A stretch of 62,298 nucleotides of DNA from a bacterium (lineage in GTDB: Bacteria; Patescibacteriota; Minisyncoccia; Moranbacterales; UBA2206). A program made the position numbers and the translations under genes. Shown here in pieces: positions 30,752 to 54,184 of this stretch. The stretch is taken from contig JAKQLJ010000038.1 in assembly GCA_029567195.1 (NCBI GenBank), forward strand, positions 1 through 62,298, written 5' to 3'. The notes under the pieces are model-generated. The model did not search any database. It saw nothing but the letters and a program-made list of their open reading frames with translations, and had not been told where the DNA came from. Within the stretch, counting starts at the first letter, position 1. Each line of letters begins with the position of its first letter.

Positions 30752-30800
30752 TTACGAATTACTAATTTAATACTAATATACGAATAGTAGTATAGTATAA
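30752..30800. repeat. Degenerate heptamer array (ACGAATT/ACTAATA)
   Basis: ACGAATTACTAATTTAATACTAATATACGAATA. Confidence 0.5.
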
Positions 30801-30813
30801 TGGTTTTATCAAT

Positions 30814-31380
30814 ATGATACTCAAACGCAACTTTTATAATCAAAATACGATAAGGGTCGCCAAAGAGCTTCTTGGCTGTTTTTTGGTACGGGAATACAGG
30901 GGGAAAATTATAAAAGCCATTATCACAGAAGTAGAGGCTTATCGCGGCGAACACGATCTAGCCAGTCACGCATCAAAAGGAAGAACTGACCGCACGGAAA
31001 TTATGTACGGCCATCCGGGATATGCCTATATCTATATGATCTACGGGATGTATTTTATGTTAAATATCGTGACGGAAGAAAAAGATTTTCCGGCCGCAAT
31101 CCTGATCCGCGCTATAAAAATTACAAATTCATCCTCCTCTGCCCGAGGGGAGGAATTGAAGGAGGGGAGAGAGATAAAAGGTCCGGGGAAAATGACAAAA
31201 TTCTTGCATATCGATAAATCTTTAAATGGTCATGATCTGACTAAAAGAAAAAAGCTTTGGCTGGAATCTGCTGCTAATAAAAAGCGTCTAAAAATCATAA
31301 AATCCCCGCGGGTGGGGATTGATTATGCACGTCATTGCAAAAGTTGGCAGTGGAATTTCAAATTCGAAAATAAATCTTAA
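30814..31380 (+). CDS. mpg: DNA-3-methyladenine glycosylase (AAG/MPG family)
   Basis: ITEVEAY.G..D.ASH, AYIYMIYG, AILIRA, GPGK, RVGI. Confidence 0.93.
   Translation: MILKRNFYNQNTIRVAKELLGCFLVREYRGKIIKAIITEVEAYRGEHDLASHASKGRTDRTEIMYGHPGYAYIYMIYGMYFMLNIVTEEKDFPAAILIRAIKITNSSSSARGEELKEGREIKGPGKMTKFLHIDKSLNGHDLTKRKKLWLESAANKKRLKIIKSPRVGIDYARHCKSWQWNFKFENKS
31128..31172. repeat. In-frame palindromic insertion in mpg (DUF559-flank family)
   Basis: TCCTCCTCTGCCCGAGGGGAGGAATTGAAGGAGGGG, similar to 35453-35494. Confidence 0.65.
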
Positions 31381-33729: not shown

Positions 33730-34401
33730 TCAATATTGAAAGCGAATGAGATTGGCTATTCTTTTGATGAGCGGCCAATTATCCCGAATCTGTCCGTGGG
33801 CGCTGGCAAGAGCAAGCGCCAAGGAGATTACCAGCAAAGCGGCGACTAATATAAGAGCCGAAGTATCTTCTATGTTTGAATATTTTAAATCAAACATAAT
33901 AGCCCAACATACGACTGCTGAAGATTCGAAGCCCATTTTCCACCGGCCGAAATTATTGGCGCGAACCTTGGCACCCGAGAGAGAAACGACAGAGCCGACT
34001 GTCAAAAGAATAACTTCAATAATCCCAATAATAAGCATCATTTTGCAGATAAAACCGGCCAGTAGAAAGGGGATTGTTTCATAACTTCTATACATAAAGA
34101 AAAAGGCGGAGAGAATAAGAAACTTGTCCCTGATCTTATCAAGTGCCGATCCTAAAGCTGTGGATTGTCCGAAATGTTTAGCGGCCATTCCATCAAGCTT
34201 ATCTGACAAAACAGCTCCGACCAAGAGGGCAAAAGTATAAAAGCTAGCTGTCTCATGCCATCTTAAGGTTGTCATTTTCCAAGTCAGGAAAAGACCAATC
34301 AGGGTGATAAGGTTGGCCAGCGTGGAATTTATCCAAATTTTCATACAAACCCAAACCGCAGTGGCCGACAGAATTCTCAAAGAACCTTGCAATATAAACA
34401 T
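33730..34401 (-). CDS. CDP-alcohol phosphatidyltransferase family protein
   Basis: ANLIT, DKLDGMAAK..G..T.LG..LDKIRDK. Confidence 0.9.
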   Translation of the reverse strand: MFILQGSLRILSATAVWVCMKIWINSTLANLITLIGLFLTWKMTTLRWHETASFYTFALLVGAVLSDKLDGMAAKHFGQSTALGSALDKIRDKFLILSAFFFMYRSYETIPFLLAGFICKMMLIIGIIEVILLTVGSVVSLSGAKVRANNFGRWKMGFESSAVVCWAIMFDLKYSNIEDTSALILVAALLVISLALALASAHGQIRDNWPLIKRIANLIRFQY

Positions 34402-34438: not shown

Positions 34439-35449
34439 TTATATAATAAACCCGATTTTCTTTTTGACTTCGTCTAATTTTGTTTTAGCAATTGGTCGGA
34501 CTTTTTTGGCTCCTTCTAGTAATATTTCCAAAACTTTTTCGTCGGACAATTCGGCAATTTTTTTCTGGAAAGGCTTCAAGAATTCCACTACAATGTCAGC
34601 CAGGTCGGATTTGAATTCGGCGTATCCTTTGCCTTCATATTTCTTTTCAATTTCTTTGGCAGAAATATCTGAGAGCAGGGAATAGATATTGATAAGATTC
34701 ATCAGTGCCGGCTTGTCATCCCGATATACTATTTCGCTACCAGAGTCAGTGACGGCTTTTTTAATTTTTCGTCTGACTGTTTCTTCATCATCGGTAAGGG
34801 CGATATAGTTATATTCCGAAGCGGCAGATTTACTCATCTTCTTGGTTGGATCGTCGAGTCCCATAATCCGCATCCCTTCTTTCTGTACATGGCCTTCAGG
34901 AATGACAAAAGTTTCTCCAAACTTATTATTAAAACGCTTAGCTAATATTCTTGTCAATTCGATATGTTGCAGCTGGTCTTCGCCAACCGGCACTAAATTA
35001 GTGTCATACAAAAGAATATCCGCTGCCATAAGAATAGGGTAATTAAAAATTCCCAAGGGGACGCTTTCAGATAAATCTTTATTTCCAGTGGCTAGTTCAG
35101 ATTTGTCTTTAAATTGTGTCATGCGGGACAGCTCTCCCGTTTTTGCGATCGTGTTAAGAATCCAAGACAATTCAGCATGCTCGCTGACATGTGACTGAAT
35201 AAAAAGAGAACATTTTGCTGGGTCAATTCCGGATGCCAGATAGATCTTAGCTACGTCCAATGTTTTTCTTTTTAACTCTTCCGGGTCTCGGGGAAGTGTT
35301 ATAGCGTGCATATCGACTACGCAAAATATCGATTCAAACTCATCCTGAAGCTTTACCCAATTTTTTAGAGCTCCTAAGTAATTACCGATGTGAATTGTTC
35401 CTGACGGCGCTACGCCGGAGAAGATTCGTTTTTTCATTATAGTTTTCAT
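34439..35449 (-). CDS. trpS: Tryptophan--tRNA ligase
   Basis: HIGNY, YPILMAADIL, KKMSKS. Confidence 0.98.
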   Translation of the reverse strand: MKTIMKKRIFSGVAPSGTIHIGNYLGALKNWVKLQDEFESIFCVVDMHAITLPRDPEELKRKTLDVAKIYLASGIDPAKCSLFIQSHVSEHAELSWILNTIAKTGELSRMTQFKDKSELATGNKDLSESVPLGIFNYPILMAADILLYDTNLVPVGEDQLQHIELTRILAKRFNNKFGETFVIPEGHVQKEGMRIMGLDDPTKKMSKSAASEYNYIALTDDEETVRRKIKKAVTDSGSEIVYRDDKPALMNLINIYSLLSDISAKEIEKKYEGKGYAEFKSDLADIVVEFLKPFQKKIAELSDEKVLEILLEGAKKVRPIAKTKLDEVKKKIGFII

Positions 35450-35452
35450 TTT

Positions 35453-35494
35453 CCTCCCCTCCTCAGATGAGGAGGGGAATTAAAGGGGAGGAGT
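35453..35494. repeat. Palindromic flank (3') of the DUF559 gene
   Basis: CTCCCCTCCTCAGATGAGGAGGGGAATTAAAGGGGAGG. Confidence 0.8.
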
Positions 35495-35501
35495 TGAAAA
35501 A

Positions 35502-35852
35502 CTAAAAGTATTTTTCAATTTCCAAACAAACTCCCTTTAAATTATTATTAATGTCATTATTCCAAAACCTTAATACCTTATATCCCAATTTTTGAAAGTA
35601 TGCCGTTCTTTCTTTGTCATACTTTTTATTGTTTTCTAGCGTATGTTGCCAACCATCAAGTTCAATTATCAGTTTCTTTTCCGGGCAGTAAAAATCGGCG
35701 ATATACTTTCCGATAGAGTGTTGCCTTCTAAATTTATAACCAAATTGTTTTATCCTTAATCTTGACCAAAGAATTATTTCCTGTGCAGTCGGGTTGTTTC
35801 TTAATGTTTTTCTTGATTTTAATTTTTCTTTTATATCATGAACGGTTCTCAT
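35502..35852 (-). CDS. DUF559 / Vsr-like small endonuclease
   Basis: LRNNPT..E..LW, KFRRQHSIG.YIADFYC, IELDGWQH, D.ERT, RFWN. Confidence 0.92.
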   Translation of the reverse strand: MRTVHDIKEKLKSRKTLRNNPTAQEIILWSRLRIKQFGYKFRRQHSIGKYIADFYCPEKKLIIELDGWQHTLENNKKYDKERTAYFQKLGYKVLRFWNNDINNNLKGVCLEIEKYF

Positions 35853-35857
35853 TTTTT

Positions 35858-35907
35858 CACCTCCCCTTTGTCCCTTCGGGACATTTCCCCTCATCTGAGG
35901 GGAAAGG
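35858..35907. repeat. Palindromic flank (5') of the DUF559 gene
   Basis: CACCTCCCCTTTGTCCCTTCGGGACATTTCCCCTCATCTGAGGGGAAAGGG. Confidence 0.8.
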
Positions 35908-36007
35908 GTATCGAATTAATTCCATCTTATCCTAGATTTTCAGAAACTACAAGCTATGCTAAAATATTCTCTGTGGCCACAGAGGCTATCTTTTTAATTT
36001 TTTTATT

Positions 36008-36058
36008 CTATGGAATACGCCGCAAAGCGGAGTGGCAAAGCCACTATTCCACGGGGTG
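36008..36058. repeat. Palindromic element, CCCGTT family (intergenic copy)
   Basis: GAATACGCC..GCG.AG.GGC...GCC.CTATT..ACGGGGTGAA aligns with the ychF insert. Confidence 0.7.
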
Positions 36059-46785: not shown

Positions 46786-46998
46786 TAAACTTGATTTTTT
46801 CGGTAAAATGTGCTATAATGGACTGTTAAAAATAAAAAGGAAGTTCTTTAAATATTCATTCCTGAATATCTCCCAAATAAAGCAAAAAACCAAATTGACT
46901 CTCCAAAGGCGGTTTTTAATCGCTTTTGGAGAGTCAATTTGGCGGACTACAAAACAAGAAAAACGCCCTTGTTTATTCAGGGCGGGAAGGAGGTTTTT

Positions 46999-52847: not shown

Positions 52848-52888
52848 CAAGTGGCAGGTGACAAGTGACAAGAGATAAATGACAAGGA
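52843..52888. repeat. Heptamer array (GTGACAA)
   Basis: AAGTGACAAGTGGCAGGTGACAAGTGACAAG. Confidence 0.75.
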
Positions 52889-52891
52889 AAT

Positions 52892-54184
52892 ATGGAAACG
52901 TCAATCAAAAAACTAAAATCCCTTCCTCAATCTCCCGGCGTTTATATTTTTAAAAATAAGGCGGGAAATATTTTATACGTGGGAAAAGCCGGGTCGCTTA
53001 AAGACCGGGTCGGATCATATTTTCAGAATCGTGACGGGTATGCACGGCCGATCGAAATATATATCTCTGAAGTTACAGATCTCGAAATCAGAAAAACAGA
53101 TACGGTTTTGGAAGCGTATATATTGGAACAGAGTTTAATAAAAAAATACCAGCCAAAATACAACATGATGTCTAAGGATGACAAAAGCTTCTGTTATGTT
53201 GTGGTTATAAAAGAGGATTTTCCAAGATTTATGATTATGCGGAAAACGGAATTAAAAGACCTCATCCTAACCCTCTCCTTATCAAGGAGAGGGAGTCAGA
53301 AGGAAAAAATTTATGGGCCATATACTTCTAAAAAACAGATTGAAACTGTTTTGAAAATCCTAAGAAAAATATTTCCATACCATGCCAAGCCACAAAAAAC
53401 AGAAAAAGGATGCCTGGATTATCATATCGGTCTTTGTCCGGGGCCTTACGACGGGGCGATTTCCAAGAAAGATTACCAAAAAAACATTCGAGCGATCCGG
53501 ATGATTTTAGAAGGAAAAAAATCCGGACTCGTAAAGAAAATGAAAAAAGAGATGCTGGAGCATTCCGATAATCAGGATTATGAAAGGGCGGCGAAACTGA
53601 GAAATCAGATGTTTGCGTTGCAACATGTGCAGGATATTGCACTCATAAACAATGAATTTTCCCCCTCTCCTCTCCGTCCCGAAGACAGGACACCTCCCCT
53701 TGGGCAGGGGAAGATGAAATTGATAAGGATTGAAGGCTATGATATATCCAATATCTCTGGGAAATATTCCGTAGGATCGATGGTGGTGTTTGATAATTCC
53801 GAAGGGGAAATAAAATCCAATAAAAATCAATATCGAAAATTCAAGATAAAAACTGTCGAAGGGGCTAATGATGTCGGAGCGATGGAAGAAGTGCTAATGC
53901 GCCGATTTCGCAATAATTGGGCATTGCCGAATTTAATAATCCTCGACGGCGGACGGGGGCATCTCAATATGGCCCGGAGAGTTTTAAGAGTTTATCACTT
54001 GGATATTCCAATCTTGGCCGTTGCCAAAGGACTGACCAGAAAGAAATTAGATTTCTGTTTTTGGGGATCGGTGCCGAAAATTCCTAAAAATATCATTGAA
54101 CAAATAAGAAATGAAGCGCATCGATTTGCCATTAAATATCACCGTGATTTGAGATCAAGGGAAGCTGTGAAAACTTTTAAATAA
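52892..54184 (+). CDS. uvrC: Excinuclease ABC subunit C (short form, no C-terminal HhH)
   Basis: PGVY.F, YVGKA..LK.RV.SYF, UVR domain, IEGYDISN, DGGRGH, RNEAHRFAI. Confidence 0.95.
   Translation: METSIKKLKSLPQSPGVYIFKNKAGNILYVGKAGSLKDRVGSYFQNRDGYARPIEIYISEVTDLEIRKTDTVLEAYILEQSLIKKYQPKYNMMSKDDKSFCYVVVIKEDFPRFMIMRKTELKDLILTLSLSRRGSQKEKIYGPYTSKKQIETVLKILRKIFPYHAKPQKTEKGCLDYHIGLCPGPYDGAISKKDYQKNIRAIRMILEGKKSGLVKKMKKEMLEHSDNQDYERAAKLRNQMFALQHVQDIALINNEFSPSPLRPEDRTPPLGQGKMKLIRIEGYDISNISGKYSVGSMVVFDNSEGEIKSNKNQYRKFKIKTVEGANDVGAMEEVLMRRFRNNWALPNLIILDGGRGHLNMARRVLRVYHLDIPILAVAKGLTRKKLDFCFWGSVPKIPKNIIEQIRNEAHRFAIKYHRDLRSREAVKTFK
53259..53296. repeat. In-frame hairpin insertion in uvrC
   Basis: CTCATCCTAACCCTCTCCTTATCAAGGAGAGGGAG. 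Confidence 0.75.
53659..53713. repeat. In-frame insertion in uvrC (DUF559-flank family)
   Basis: CTCTCCTCTCCGTCCCGAAGACAGGACACCTCCCCTTGGGCAGGGGAAG. Confidence 0.85.

Follow-up and report, generated by a model that had tools for sequence, protein, structure and literature searches.

A DUF559 nuclease gene centred between inverted three-arm palindromes: a probable formerly mobile cassette upstream of trpS

Here we describe a compact cassette of ~470 bp, directly upstream of trpS, in a stretch of 62,298 nucleotides (hereafter the window; contig JAKQLJ010000038.1 of assembly GCA_029567195.1, from a bacterium of the Moranbacterales), in which the gene for a small nuclease of the DUF559 family fills the exact centre between two inverted, three-armed palindromic units. 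On balance, we favour the view that this is a discrete, formerly mobile cassette with a short derivative resembling miniature inverted-repeat transposable elements (MITEs), and with nuclease-induced breaks and recombinational copying as the probable route of spread. Movement of the cassette as one unit is very likely, movement by its own nuclease acting on its ends falls a little short of an even prospect, and our leaning on the combined statement follows from these two judgements. The view draws on direct observation of the anatomy of the element, of a twin without the open reading frame (ORF) in the same genome, of a lineage-specific presence at trpS, of several genomic contexts occupied by one subfamily, and of recurrence across phyla with a fixed polarity; that the nuclease drove the movement is what we infer.

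Structure of the cassette

The genome (labelled G000) comprises 829 kb (~0.83 Mb) in 54 contigs at ~38% G+C, the window being its contig C1, and the closest homologues of both its TrpS and its DUF559 protein are labelled Candidatus Moranbacteria or Moraniibacteriota (Patescibacteria). The extent of the cassette was set by similarity to an ORF-less copy on another contig (G000:C10:33782-33926), and its outer edges are fuzzy by ~10 nt. The features of the locus, in window coordinates, are as follows.

35445..35915, minus strand: whole cassette, ~470 bp (left three-arm unit, DUF559 ORF, right three-arm unit)
35502..35852, minus strand: DUF559/Vsr-fold nuclease gene, 116 aa plus stop (ATG at 35852, TAG at 35502-35504)
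34439..35449, minus strand: trpS, the host gene (PF00579, E=7e-75)
35450..35501, plus strand: right end, 51/53 identical to C10:33860-33912, mirror 11/11
35456-35464, plus strand: right-end pyrimidine arm (Y-arm), CCCCTCCTC
35465-35468, plus strand: right-end loop, AGAT
35469-35477, plus strand: right-end purine arm (R-arm), GAGGAGGGG
35478-35484, plus strand: right-end linker, AATTAAA
35485-35493, plus strand: right-end third arm, GGGGAGGAG, followed on its inner side by TTGAAAAA
35855..35908, minus strand: left end, 50/54 identical to C10:33790-33843, mirror 9/9
35897-35905, minus strand: left-end Y-arm, TTTCCCCTC
35893-35896, minus strand: left-end loop, AGAT
35884-35892, minus strand: left-end R-arm, GAGGGGAAA
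35870-35882, minus strand: left-end linker hairpin, GTCCCGAAGGGAC
35861-35869, minus strand: left-end third arm, AAAGGGGAG, overlapping the ribosome-binding site GGAGGTG (35858-35864)

The right palindrome (35456-35477) reads CCCCTCCTC-AGAT-GAGGAGGGG and the left one (35884-35905) reads TTTCCCCTC-ATCT-GAGGGGAAA, or TTTCCCCTC-AGAT-GAGGGGAAA on the minus strand. Both carry the 12-mer CCTCAGATGAGG in opposite orientation, a sequence with no further match in the window and for which none of 100 shuffles gave two occurrences. The original prediction, made from the window's letters alone, that related and inverted palindromes bracket the gene is borne out; the intact 116-aa nuclease ORF that it described was likewise recovered, on the minus strand and as a DUF559 gene, with trpS directly downstream on the same strand, and gene and palindromes behave as the single compact cassette that it proposed.

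In each hairpin one arm is pure pyrimidine and the other pure purine, and between the hairpin and the ORF stands a third arm that exactly mirrors the purine arm (11/11 positions on the right, 9/9 on the left), the order within a unit being pyrimidine arm, AGAT loop, purine arm, linker and third arm. Read continuously, the left end is GAGGGGAAA-t[GTCCCGAAGGGAC]a-AAGGGGAG and the right end GAGGAGGGG-aattaaa-GGGGAGGAG. The three-arm units thus form terminal inverted repeats with the ORF exactly at the centre: on the gene strand, GGAGGTGAAAAA stands directly before its ATG and TTTTTCAACTCC directly after its TAG.

The G-rich arms also serve as ribosome-binding sites. The nuclease gene has the Shine-Dalgarno (SD) sequence GGAGGTG, separated from the ATG by AAAAA, and the purine arm of the right end, read on the gene strand, supplies GGAGGGGAGGAAAATG as SD for trpS, the right unit ending in SD plus ATG. 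A 130-aa version of the ORF from the ATG at 35894 would have its start within the hairpin and lacks an SD, and a scan for sigma-70 promoters returned no convincing candidate immediately before the nuclease gene. The trpS gene starts at ATG 35449 or 35437, 53-65 nt past the nuclease ORF and 6-18 nt past the right hairpin; because TrpS proteins of relatives align from the second Met, the native start is likely MKKRIFSG at 35437, and ATG 35449 falls in the cassette end, TrpS gaining a four-residue in-frame extension from it. No second DUF559 gene occurs in the assembly (87% complete). Four independent assemblies, from different samples, carry the cassette at 100% identity.

An ORF-less twin upstream of atpA

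An exact search of the contigs of the genome with the 22-nt right hairpin returned one further copy, on contig C10. The element there (33782-33926) consists of a left unit, 16 nt and a right unit, contains no ORF, and lies directly before atpA. Its left unit (33790-33843) and its right unit (33860-33912) match the corresponding cassette ends as listed above, the latter inside a block of 62/67 identical positions that continues into flanking sequence. As single-stranded DNA the element is predicted to fold into a compound palindrome with two outer hairpins, a linker hairpin and a central stem (-33.7 kcal/mol, z=-6.0). It ends in GGAGGATAATGAA right before atpA, giving AtpA a six-residue in-frame extension, and cassette and C10 element thus both give GGAGGGGAGGA(A/T)AATGAA to the host gene (trpS and atpA, respectively).

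The centre of the C10 element, ATTGTAAACAAATTATAA, retains an ORF-like start and end with ATG changed to TTG and TAG to TAA. Since it begins and ends like the ORF, the element may be an internal-deletion derivative of the cassette; it may equally well be a version that was never filled. The C10 element is identical in two other independent assemblies, and this full identity across independent assemblies, as for the cassette, shows that both are real. The gap between atpH and atpA is 843 nt here (G000:C10:33073-33915) versus 20-180 nt in most relatives.

The same 843-nt spacer also contains an antisense 89-aa ORF with no Pfam match, and one relative (G007) has an atpH-atpA gap of ~2.5 kb that includes a partial atpH duplicate. 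A stretch of ~110-120 nt (ATTATAGCACATTTTA..AAAAAATCAAGTGTTTGAATGCTGA...) is 84% identical between G000:C10:33672-33790 and G000:C25:238-357, lying in both places immediately upstream of ORF-less pairs of three-arm units that are of different subtypes, and a 39-nt piece of it recurs at 90% identity in the window (46789-46827, minus strand). This stretch may be a portable promoter or a piece of a larger element.

Absence from the trpS site in relatives

For comparison we used 40 related genomes of the same family or order, all of different genera. DUF559 homologues of 45-68% identity occur in 17/40 of these (18/41 with the present genome), at 0-5 matches per genome. All 40 have trpS and none has DUF559 beside it, the gene lying on another contig or more than 75 kb away. 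Two closer metagenomic relatives (TrpS 80-81% identical) keep the RNase J / coiled-coil / trpS / PGM synteny with DUF559 absent, a further relative (G024) keeps the divergent pair of coiled-coil gene and trpS with a plain spacer of 82 nt, and the trpS leaders of relatives are plain, at 46-82 nt. The closest TrpS relative is only 83% identical and lies on a 1.3-kb contig, providing no empty site alignable at the nucleotide level, so that the exact insertion point and any target-site duplication are not definable.

The comparison of synteny at trpS that the original prediction had proposed thus found the gene missing there from the 40 genomes and the two closer relatives alike. A gene fixed at this site across the lineage without its palindromes, the outcome named as speaking against the idea, was not what we found, as the cassette is absent at trpS from all relatives compared. 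Presence or absence at an otherwise conserved site, as expected of homing genes, is seen here at the level of genus or above only, and the DUF559 tree does not track host families. The cassette entered the spacer between the conserved coiled-coil gene and trpS in this lineage.

In three genera atpA has a DUF559 gene ~1.05-1.15 kb downstream (G013:C9:17836-18159, L009; G019:C50:1788-2108, L012; G033:C19:3820-4137, L013); by eye, the gene at L012 directly follows an atpG-like C-terminus and apparently sits between atpG and atpD. This position may be a recurrent hotspot or an old insertion kept by vertical descent.

Two other features of trpS in relatives were encountered. The trpS leader of G018 (L030, 1070-1500) has grown to ~420 nt through four copies, in alternating orientation, of another repeat, ACCCGGTAGTAGAATTTTGAC, a second small repeat family seen in this intergenic slot. 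Several relatives have lineage-specific, AT-rich, in-frame inserts of ~28-51 codons near TrpS residue 117-123 (G004:C10:85610-85728, G026:C35:29323-29408, G030:C6:39603-39757 and G033:C28:1026-1153); these were considered as three-arm units and rejected, being non-palindromic, AT-rich and unrelated.

The nuclease

The protein belongs to Pfam family DUF559 (PF04480; E=1e-34, 119.1 bits versus a cut-off of 20.6, profile positions 5-106 of 109), a family without assigned function to our knowledge. By sequence its nearest solved relative is a structural-genomics protein, PDB 3HRL (E=7e-21). An AlphaFold2 model (pLDDT 87.6) submitted to Foldseek retrieved 3HRL first (TM 0.84), then the homing endonuclease I-Bth0305I, PDB 3R3P (TM 0.78, probability 1.0), and then Vsr, 1CW0; I-Bth0305I is thus the next solved fold after 3HRL (ranks 2-3), with weak sequence similarity (E=0.027). 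The predicted model has a Vsr-type alpha/beta fold with conserved acidic and His residues (D..ExD..H). When 18 homologues from related genomes are aligned, D53, E64, H70 and R95 are the same in every sequence and D66 is kept in 17/18, and since these catalytic-type residues are invariant or nearly so, the active site looks intact, its catalytic role being read from the alignment.

The same subfamily at other loci

Outside the genome, in low-G+C contigs, the same type of end occurs with and without the nuclease. At L186 a full cassette lies between apt and a gene for a PNP-type phosphorylase; its protein is 63% identical, it has the same AGAT tips and the same inner GAGCTGAAGATG, and its right end abuts the host ATG as in the window cassette. 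A full cassette together with an ORF-less pair follows an H+-pyrophosphatase (H+-PPase) gene at L181, a homologue of 65% identity sits between an HlyD-like gene and an ABC ATPase gene at L041, and an ORF-less pair of AGAT units lies in frame within mfd of another genome at L152. One nuclease lineage with one end type is thus found in at least five unrelated contexts.

When metagenomes were scanned for the exact 22-mer CCCCTCCTCAGATGAGGAGGGG, more than 120 contigs were among the matches listed, with G+C contents of 33-74%, and in nearly all listed contigs the 22-mer is followed by a linker, often a hairpin, and then by a third arm of the GGGGTGGTG type.

Identical hairpins, loop included, span G+C contents from 33 to 74%. 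In peat and soil metagenome contigs of ~58% G+C (L121-L200) the 22-mer lies within a highly repeated composite element of high-G+C organisms, in the order CCCCTCCTGAATCAGGAGGGG, ~14 nt, 22-mer CCCCTCCTCAGATGAGGAGGGG, tGGCGCGCCGAGCGCC, GGGGTGGTG.

DUF559 loci across phyla

To place the cassette in a wider frame we collected 98 DUF559 loci, 18 from the relatives and 80 from a scan of species-representative genomes, covering Patescibacteria, Melainabacteria, Chloroflexota, Pseudomonadota, Bacillota, Bacteroidota, Nitrospirota and others. Each was scored by the best inverted repeat between two 160-nt flanks, with the same geometry shifted along the locus as control. Flanking inverted repeats exceed the 95th percentile of the shifted controls at 68/98 loci (median score 15.25 versus 8), and they are true inverted repeats, as the loops at the two ends are mutually reverse-complementary. 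The polarity is also shared, the third arm facing the ORF in 96 cases versus 18. Hairpin-tip class clusters on the nuclease tree, requiring 34 changes versus at least 43 in 300 shuffles; this clustering is not decisive, since host phylum clusters on the same tree.

The exact TMECO consensus (a triplex-forming repeat, discussed below) occurs at 8/101 DUF559 loci, in other taxa. About 15/101 DUF559 matches lie in open frames of at least 300 aa, with frames at the locus edge cut off, and these may be in-frame or fused versions.

Three-arm units elsewhere in the genome

Hairpins with a G/C-rich pyrimidine arm, loop and purine arm give 77 strand-hits in the genome versus 24-38 in Markov controls, and strict three-arm units number 16 versus 0-3. 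About 12 units lie within long ORFs, those of the window being in uvrC and in the methylpurine-DNA glycosylase (MPG) gene:

31132..31175, plus strand: solo three-arm unit of another subtype, in frame in the methylpurine-DNA glycosylase ORF (30796-31380), encoding ...SSSSARGEELKEGRE...
53241..53310, minus strand: solo three-arm unit CCCTCTCCTT gat AAGGAGAGGG tta GGATGAGG, in frame in uvrC (52883-54184)
53655..53725, minus strand: solo unit with linker hairpin, CTTCCCCT gccca AGGGGAGG tGTCCTGTCTTCGGGAC GGAGAGGAGAGGGGG, in frame in uvrC

The in-frame units encode SPSPL...GEG-like peptides, and those of uvrC lie between Pfam domains, the unit at 53241..53310 falling between the GIY-YIG and UVR domains. 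They are of other subtypes (CCCTCTCCTT..., CCTTCTCCC..., CCTCCCCT...) than the cassette ends. A solo unit at C38:15542-15574 has 31/33 nt in common with the left end of the cassette.

Proposed route of spread and alternatives

If the nuclease is responsible for the movement of the cassette, its target would be the compound palindrome that two paired units make up, and the site recognised and then nicked or cut would probably lie in or close to the middle of this palindrome or else at the conserved CTC-AGAT-GAG hairpin tip; in recombinational repair a gene-bearing copy would then serve as template, and the cut copy would receive the ORF or the complete pair of units. This would be closer to the spread of homing endonucleases and to gene conversion than to transposase chemistry; the I-Bth0305I-like fold suggests such a reading, as does the position of the ORF in the middle of the symmetric element, where its presence would interrupt a central target. 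Insertion before a start codon would be tolerable where the right end donates SD and in-frame ATG, and insertion inside genes where the units can be read through without a stop.

A number of observations weigh against this reading. At the borders of the cassette and of the C10 element there are no direct repeats or target-site duplications, and no presence/absence polymorphism was seen across the four assemblies with the cassette and both assemblies with the C10 element. The cognate AGAT subtype has only one further copy in the genome, the intergenic one on C10, and the ~16 other three-arm units are of other subtypes with no matching nuclease in the genome. Across phyla, 30/98 DUF559 loci have no clear inverted repeat, and DUF559 lies within 400 nt of the 22-mer in only 3/80 contigs examined (of >120). 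One hairpin pattern is commoner in genomes with DUF559 (median 10.5 versus 2, p=2e-4, 41 genomes), but the association is lost once three hairpins per gene copy are subtracted (p=0.19), and genomes without DUF559 can be rich in solo hairpins (26 in G020 and 11 in G001). Finally, the shared position of DUF559 downstream of atpA could mean long vertical retention.

These numbers also bear on the idea that the original prediction had added to its description of the locus, namely that the nuclease is the autonomous partner of the in-frame inserts. For the inserts of this genome the idea fares poorly, as they are of other subtypes and the association does not survive the correction; in its favour, an ORF-less copy with cognate ends does exist on C10, as does the in-frame unit pair in mfd at L152. 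A partnership of this nuclease with the genome's own in-frame inserts is not proven.

The same figures provide the case for the strongest alternative, which we judge rather unlikely: that the three-arm palindromes propagate by themselves, through host recombination, slippage at non-B DNA or an enzyme acting in trans, and that DUF559 is trapped cargo or a gene that lands there preferentially without acting on the units. Solo units far exceed DUF559 genes (~20 versus 1 here), abound in the two DUF559-less genomes just named, and are seldom accompanied by the gene in the 22-mer contigs; the hairpin-DUF559 association is not significant once the flanking copies are removed; and weak Y1_Tnp-like ORFs are present in this genome, with clear ones in relatives. 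Against a mere passenger, however, stands the recurrence of the same cargo family between repeats at 68/98 loci across phyla, with the third arm oriented 96 to 18, as well as the ORF filling the exact centre of symmetry; the Y1-like ORFs of this genome are not beside any three-arm unit, and tip class follows the nuclease tree, albeit confounded by host phylum.

More doubtful is a caretaker role, in which a domesticated DUF559 repair nuclease would process the hairpin, cruciform or triplex formed by the repeat and so limit its instability, being kept adjacent for co-regulation in a cassette that is no longer, or never was, selfish. TMECO-type repeats do form triplexes and have been linked to genomic instability (PMC4666352), and the conserved active site, the position ~1.1 kb downstream of atpA common to three genera and the fixed, invariant state of the cassette in all assemblies of the organism would suit such a role. 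The gene is nevertheless absent from 23/41 genomes, several of them with hairpins, its position varies between genomes, and the exact placement between inverted units together with the ORF-less twin would be left unexplained.

It is quite improbable that the ends are primarily a regulatory leader, whose hairpins in the mRNA control trpS and atpA through SD sequestration or attenuation, with DUF559 as the first gene of a trpS operon. The purine arm of the right hairpin does overlap the SD of both trpS and atpA in a stable predicted RNA fold (-29.6 kcal/mol, z=-3.7), and trpS and atpA, both highly expressed housekeeping genes, share this end. The left end, however, is unexceptional as RNA (z=-2.2), and the two ends, being inverted, yield different RNAs; units of the same kind lie in frame inside ORFs in both orientations, trpS leaders of relatives are plain (46-82 nt), and the layout recurs around DUF559 in many phyla, whatever the downstream gene. 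Rfam searches of the locus (in E-value mode) and of the whole window gave nothing relevant, only a tmRNA elsewhere, and for this reason a T-box or other known leader was rejected.

Chance similarity or an assembly artefact is effectively refuted: short G/C-rich palindromes can arise as terminators, and of the four contigs that carry the cassette in other assemblies, three span only 1.3-2.3 kb and end within trpS, but 0/100 shuffles reproduce the 12-mer pair, strict three-arm units number 16 versus 0-3 in Markov controls, and identical sequence in four independent assemblies shows that the cassette is not an assembly product.

Comparison with known systems

Known kinds of element are involved here, namely selfish nuclease genes, repeat-plus-enzyme systems and MITE-like derivatives; for the link between DUF559 and repeats we found no published description. 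The literature search likewise returned no account of DUF559 with flanking repeats or mobility, and no link between Vsr-like nucleases and inverted repeats or between intrastrand triplex motifs and a cognate nuclease.

In REPtrons, the gene of a REP-associated tyrosine transposase (RAYT) lies between inverted REP sequences, and further REP/REPIN copies are scattered elsewhere. The analogy to RAYT and REP that was drawn for the cassette in the original prediction holds for layout: one small enzyme gene between inverted hairpin repeats, gene-less singlets or doublets elsewhere, and no target-site duplications. It fails for chemistry, as the enzyme is a Vsr-fold nuclease of PD-(D/E)xK type and not a HUH/Y1 transposase (PF01797), making RAYT-like chemistry impossible. 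Further differences are the three-arm homopurine/homopyrimidine unit with mirror third arm in place of a REP with GTAG head, the one cognate extra copy (C10) beside ~16 units of other subtypes, and the occurrence of units in frame in genes. RAYT involvement was also rejected directly, as the Y1_Tnp-like (PF01797) ORFs of the genome are not adjacent to three-arm units. The matches concerned are weak, cover the C-terminal two-thirds of the Y1_Tnp (IS200/RAYT) profile (G000:C21:12784-13014, C38:79041-79223 and C8:20153-20317) and lie in open frames of ~184-234 aa; similar ORFs are common in relatives.

I-Bth0305I, a Vsr-like 'EDxHD' homing endonuclease, has the same catalytic fold as the nuclease and, like the cassette, represents a selfish nuclease gene with a presence that varies between genomes and an ORF central in a symmetric site. 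Unlike the cassette, it is encoded within a group I intron, in a phage gene, and carries additional DNA-binding domains, whereas the cassette has no intron, intein or splicing and instead has terminal inverted repeats and an ORF-less derivative. The nuclease ORF resides neither in an intron or intein (no Rfam intron was found) nor free-standing next to a target gene, having its own SD, start and stop between the inverted repeats.

Repeats of the BoxC/PIT/TMECO type have been known since the 1990s and, like the units described here, consist of a pyrimidine arm, loop, purine arm, short linker and G-rich third arm. The mirror arms of the cassette (11/11 and 9/9) provide the three consecutive blocks predicted to be able to form an intrastrand triplex. 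The units differ from TMECO in sequence, with 0 strict consensus matches in the genome, and in their longer linkers (7-16 nt, sometimes a hairpin). The TMECO consensus is CCCTCNCCC N3-6 GGGNGAGGG N3 GGGNGAGGG (Holder et al. 2015, PMC4666352); these repeats were reported as orphans of unknown origin that form triplexes, are linked to genomic instability and rearrangements, are always intergenic and are unlinked to mobile elements (PMC4666352).

Rickettsia palindromic elements (RPEs) resemble the units in being palindromes tolerated in frame in housekeeping genes (here uvrC and MPG, and mfd at L152), but RPEs have no associated enzyme gene and the cassette is intergenic with its own start and stop. 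With MITEs it has in common that a full-length and a short element share both terminal repeats, at 93-96% identity; it differs from MITE systems in having no transposase, no target-site duplication and a single short copy of the subtype. An integron-type gene cassette was rejected, as 13-mers of the GTATCGGAAATA type (GTTATCGGAAATA) occur only on C38 and at scattered sites with 1 mismatch, with no core 13-mer near the cassette or the C10 element.

Implications

Should the nuclease act as proposed, a Vsr-fold enzyme would act on a compound palindrome, perhaps as extruded non-B DNA, and its element would spread by break-induced copying, landing silently at gene starts, where it donates SD and ATG, or in frame. 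This would be a new, nuclease-only route of mobility, and it would explain how palindromic inserts can enter coding regions without lethal effect. Two widespread orphans, the DUF559 family and the three-arm repeats, could then be halves of one system. The broad form of this idea, in which DUF559 nucleases are the missing mobilising or maintaining enzymes of BoxC/PIT/TMECO-type repeats across bacteria and form with them a new class of mobile element, is a speculative extension that we regard as doubtful. The present genome offers a clean test case, being small, with a single DUF559 gene and with full-length and ORF-less elements at the starts of essential genes (trpS and atpA).

Neighbouring palindromes

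Two further palindromic features lie between the cassette and the divergent coiled-coil gene. At 35961-35992 of the window there is a palindrome resembling a bidirectional terminator, CTCTGTGGCCACAGAG, and at 36020-36058 a nested double hairpin, GGAATA CGCCGCAAAGCGG AG TGGCAAAGCCA CTATTCC.

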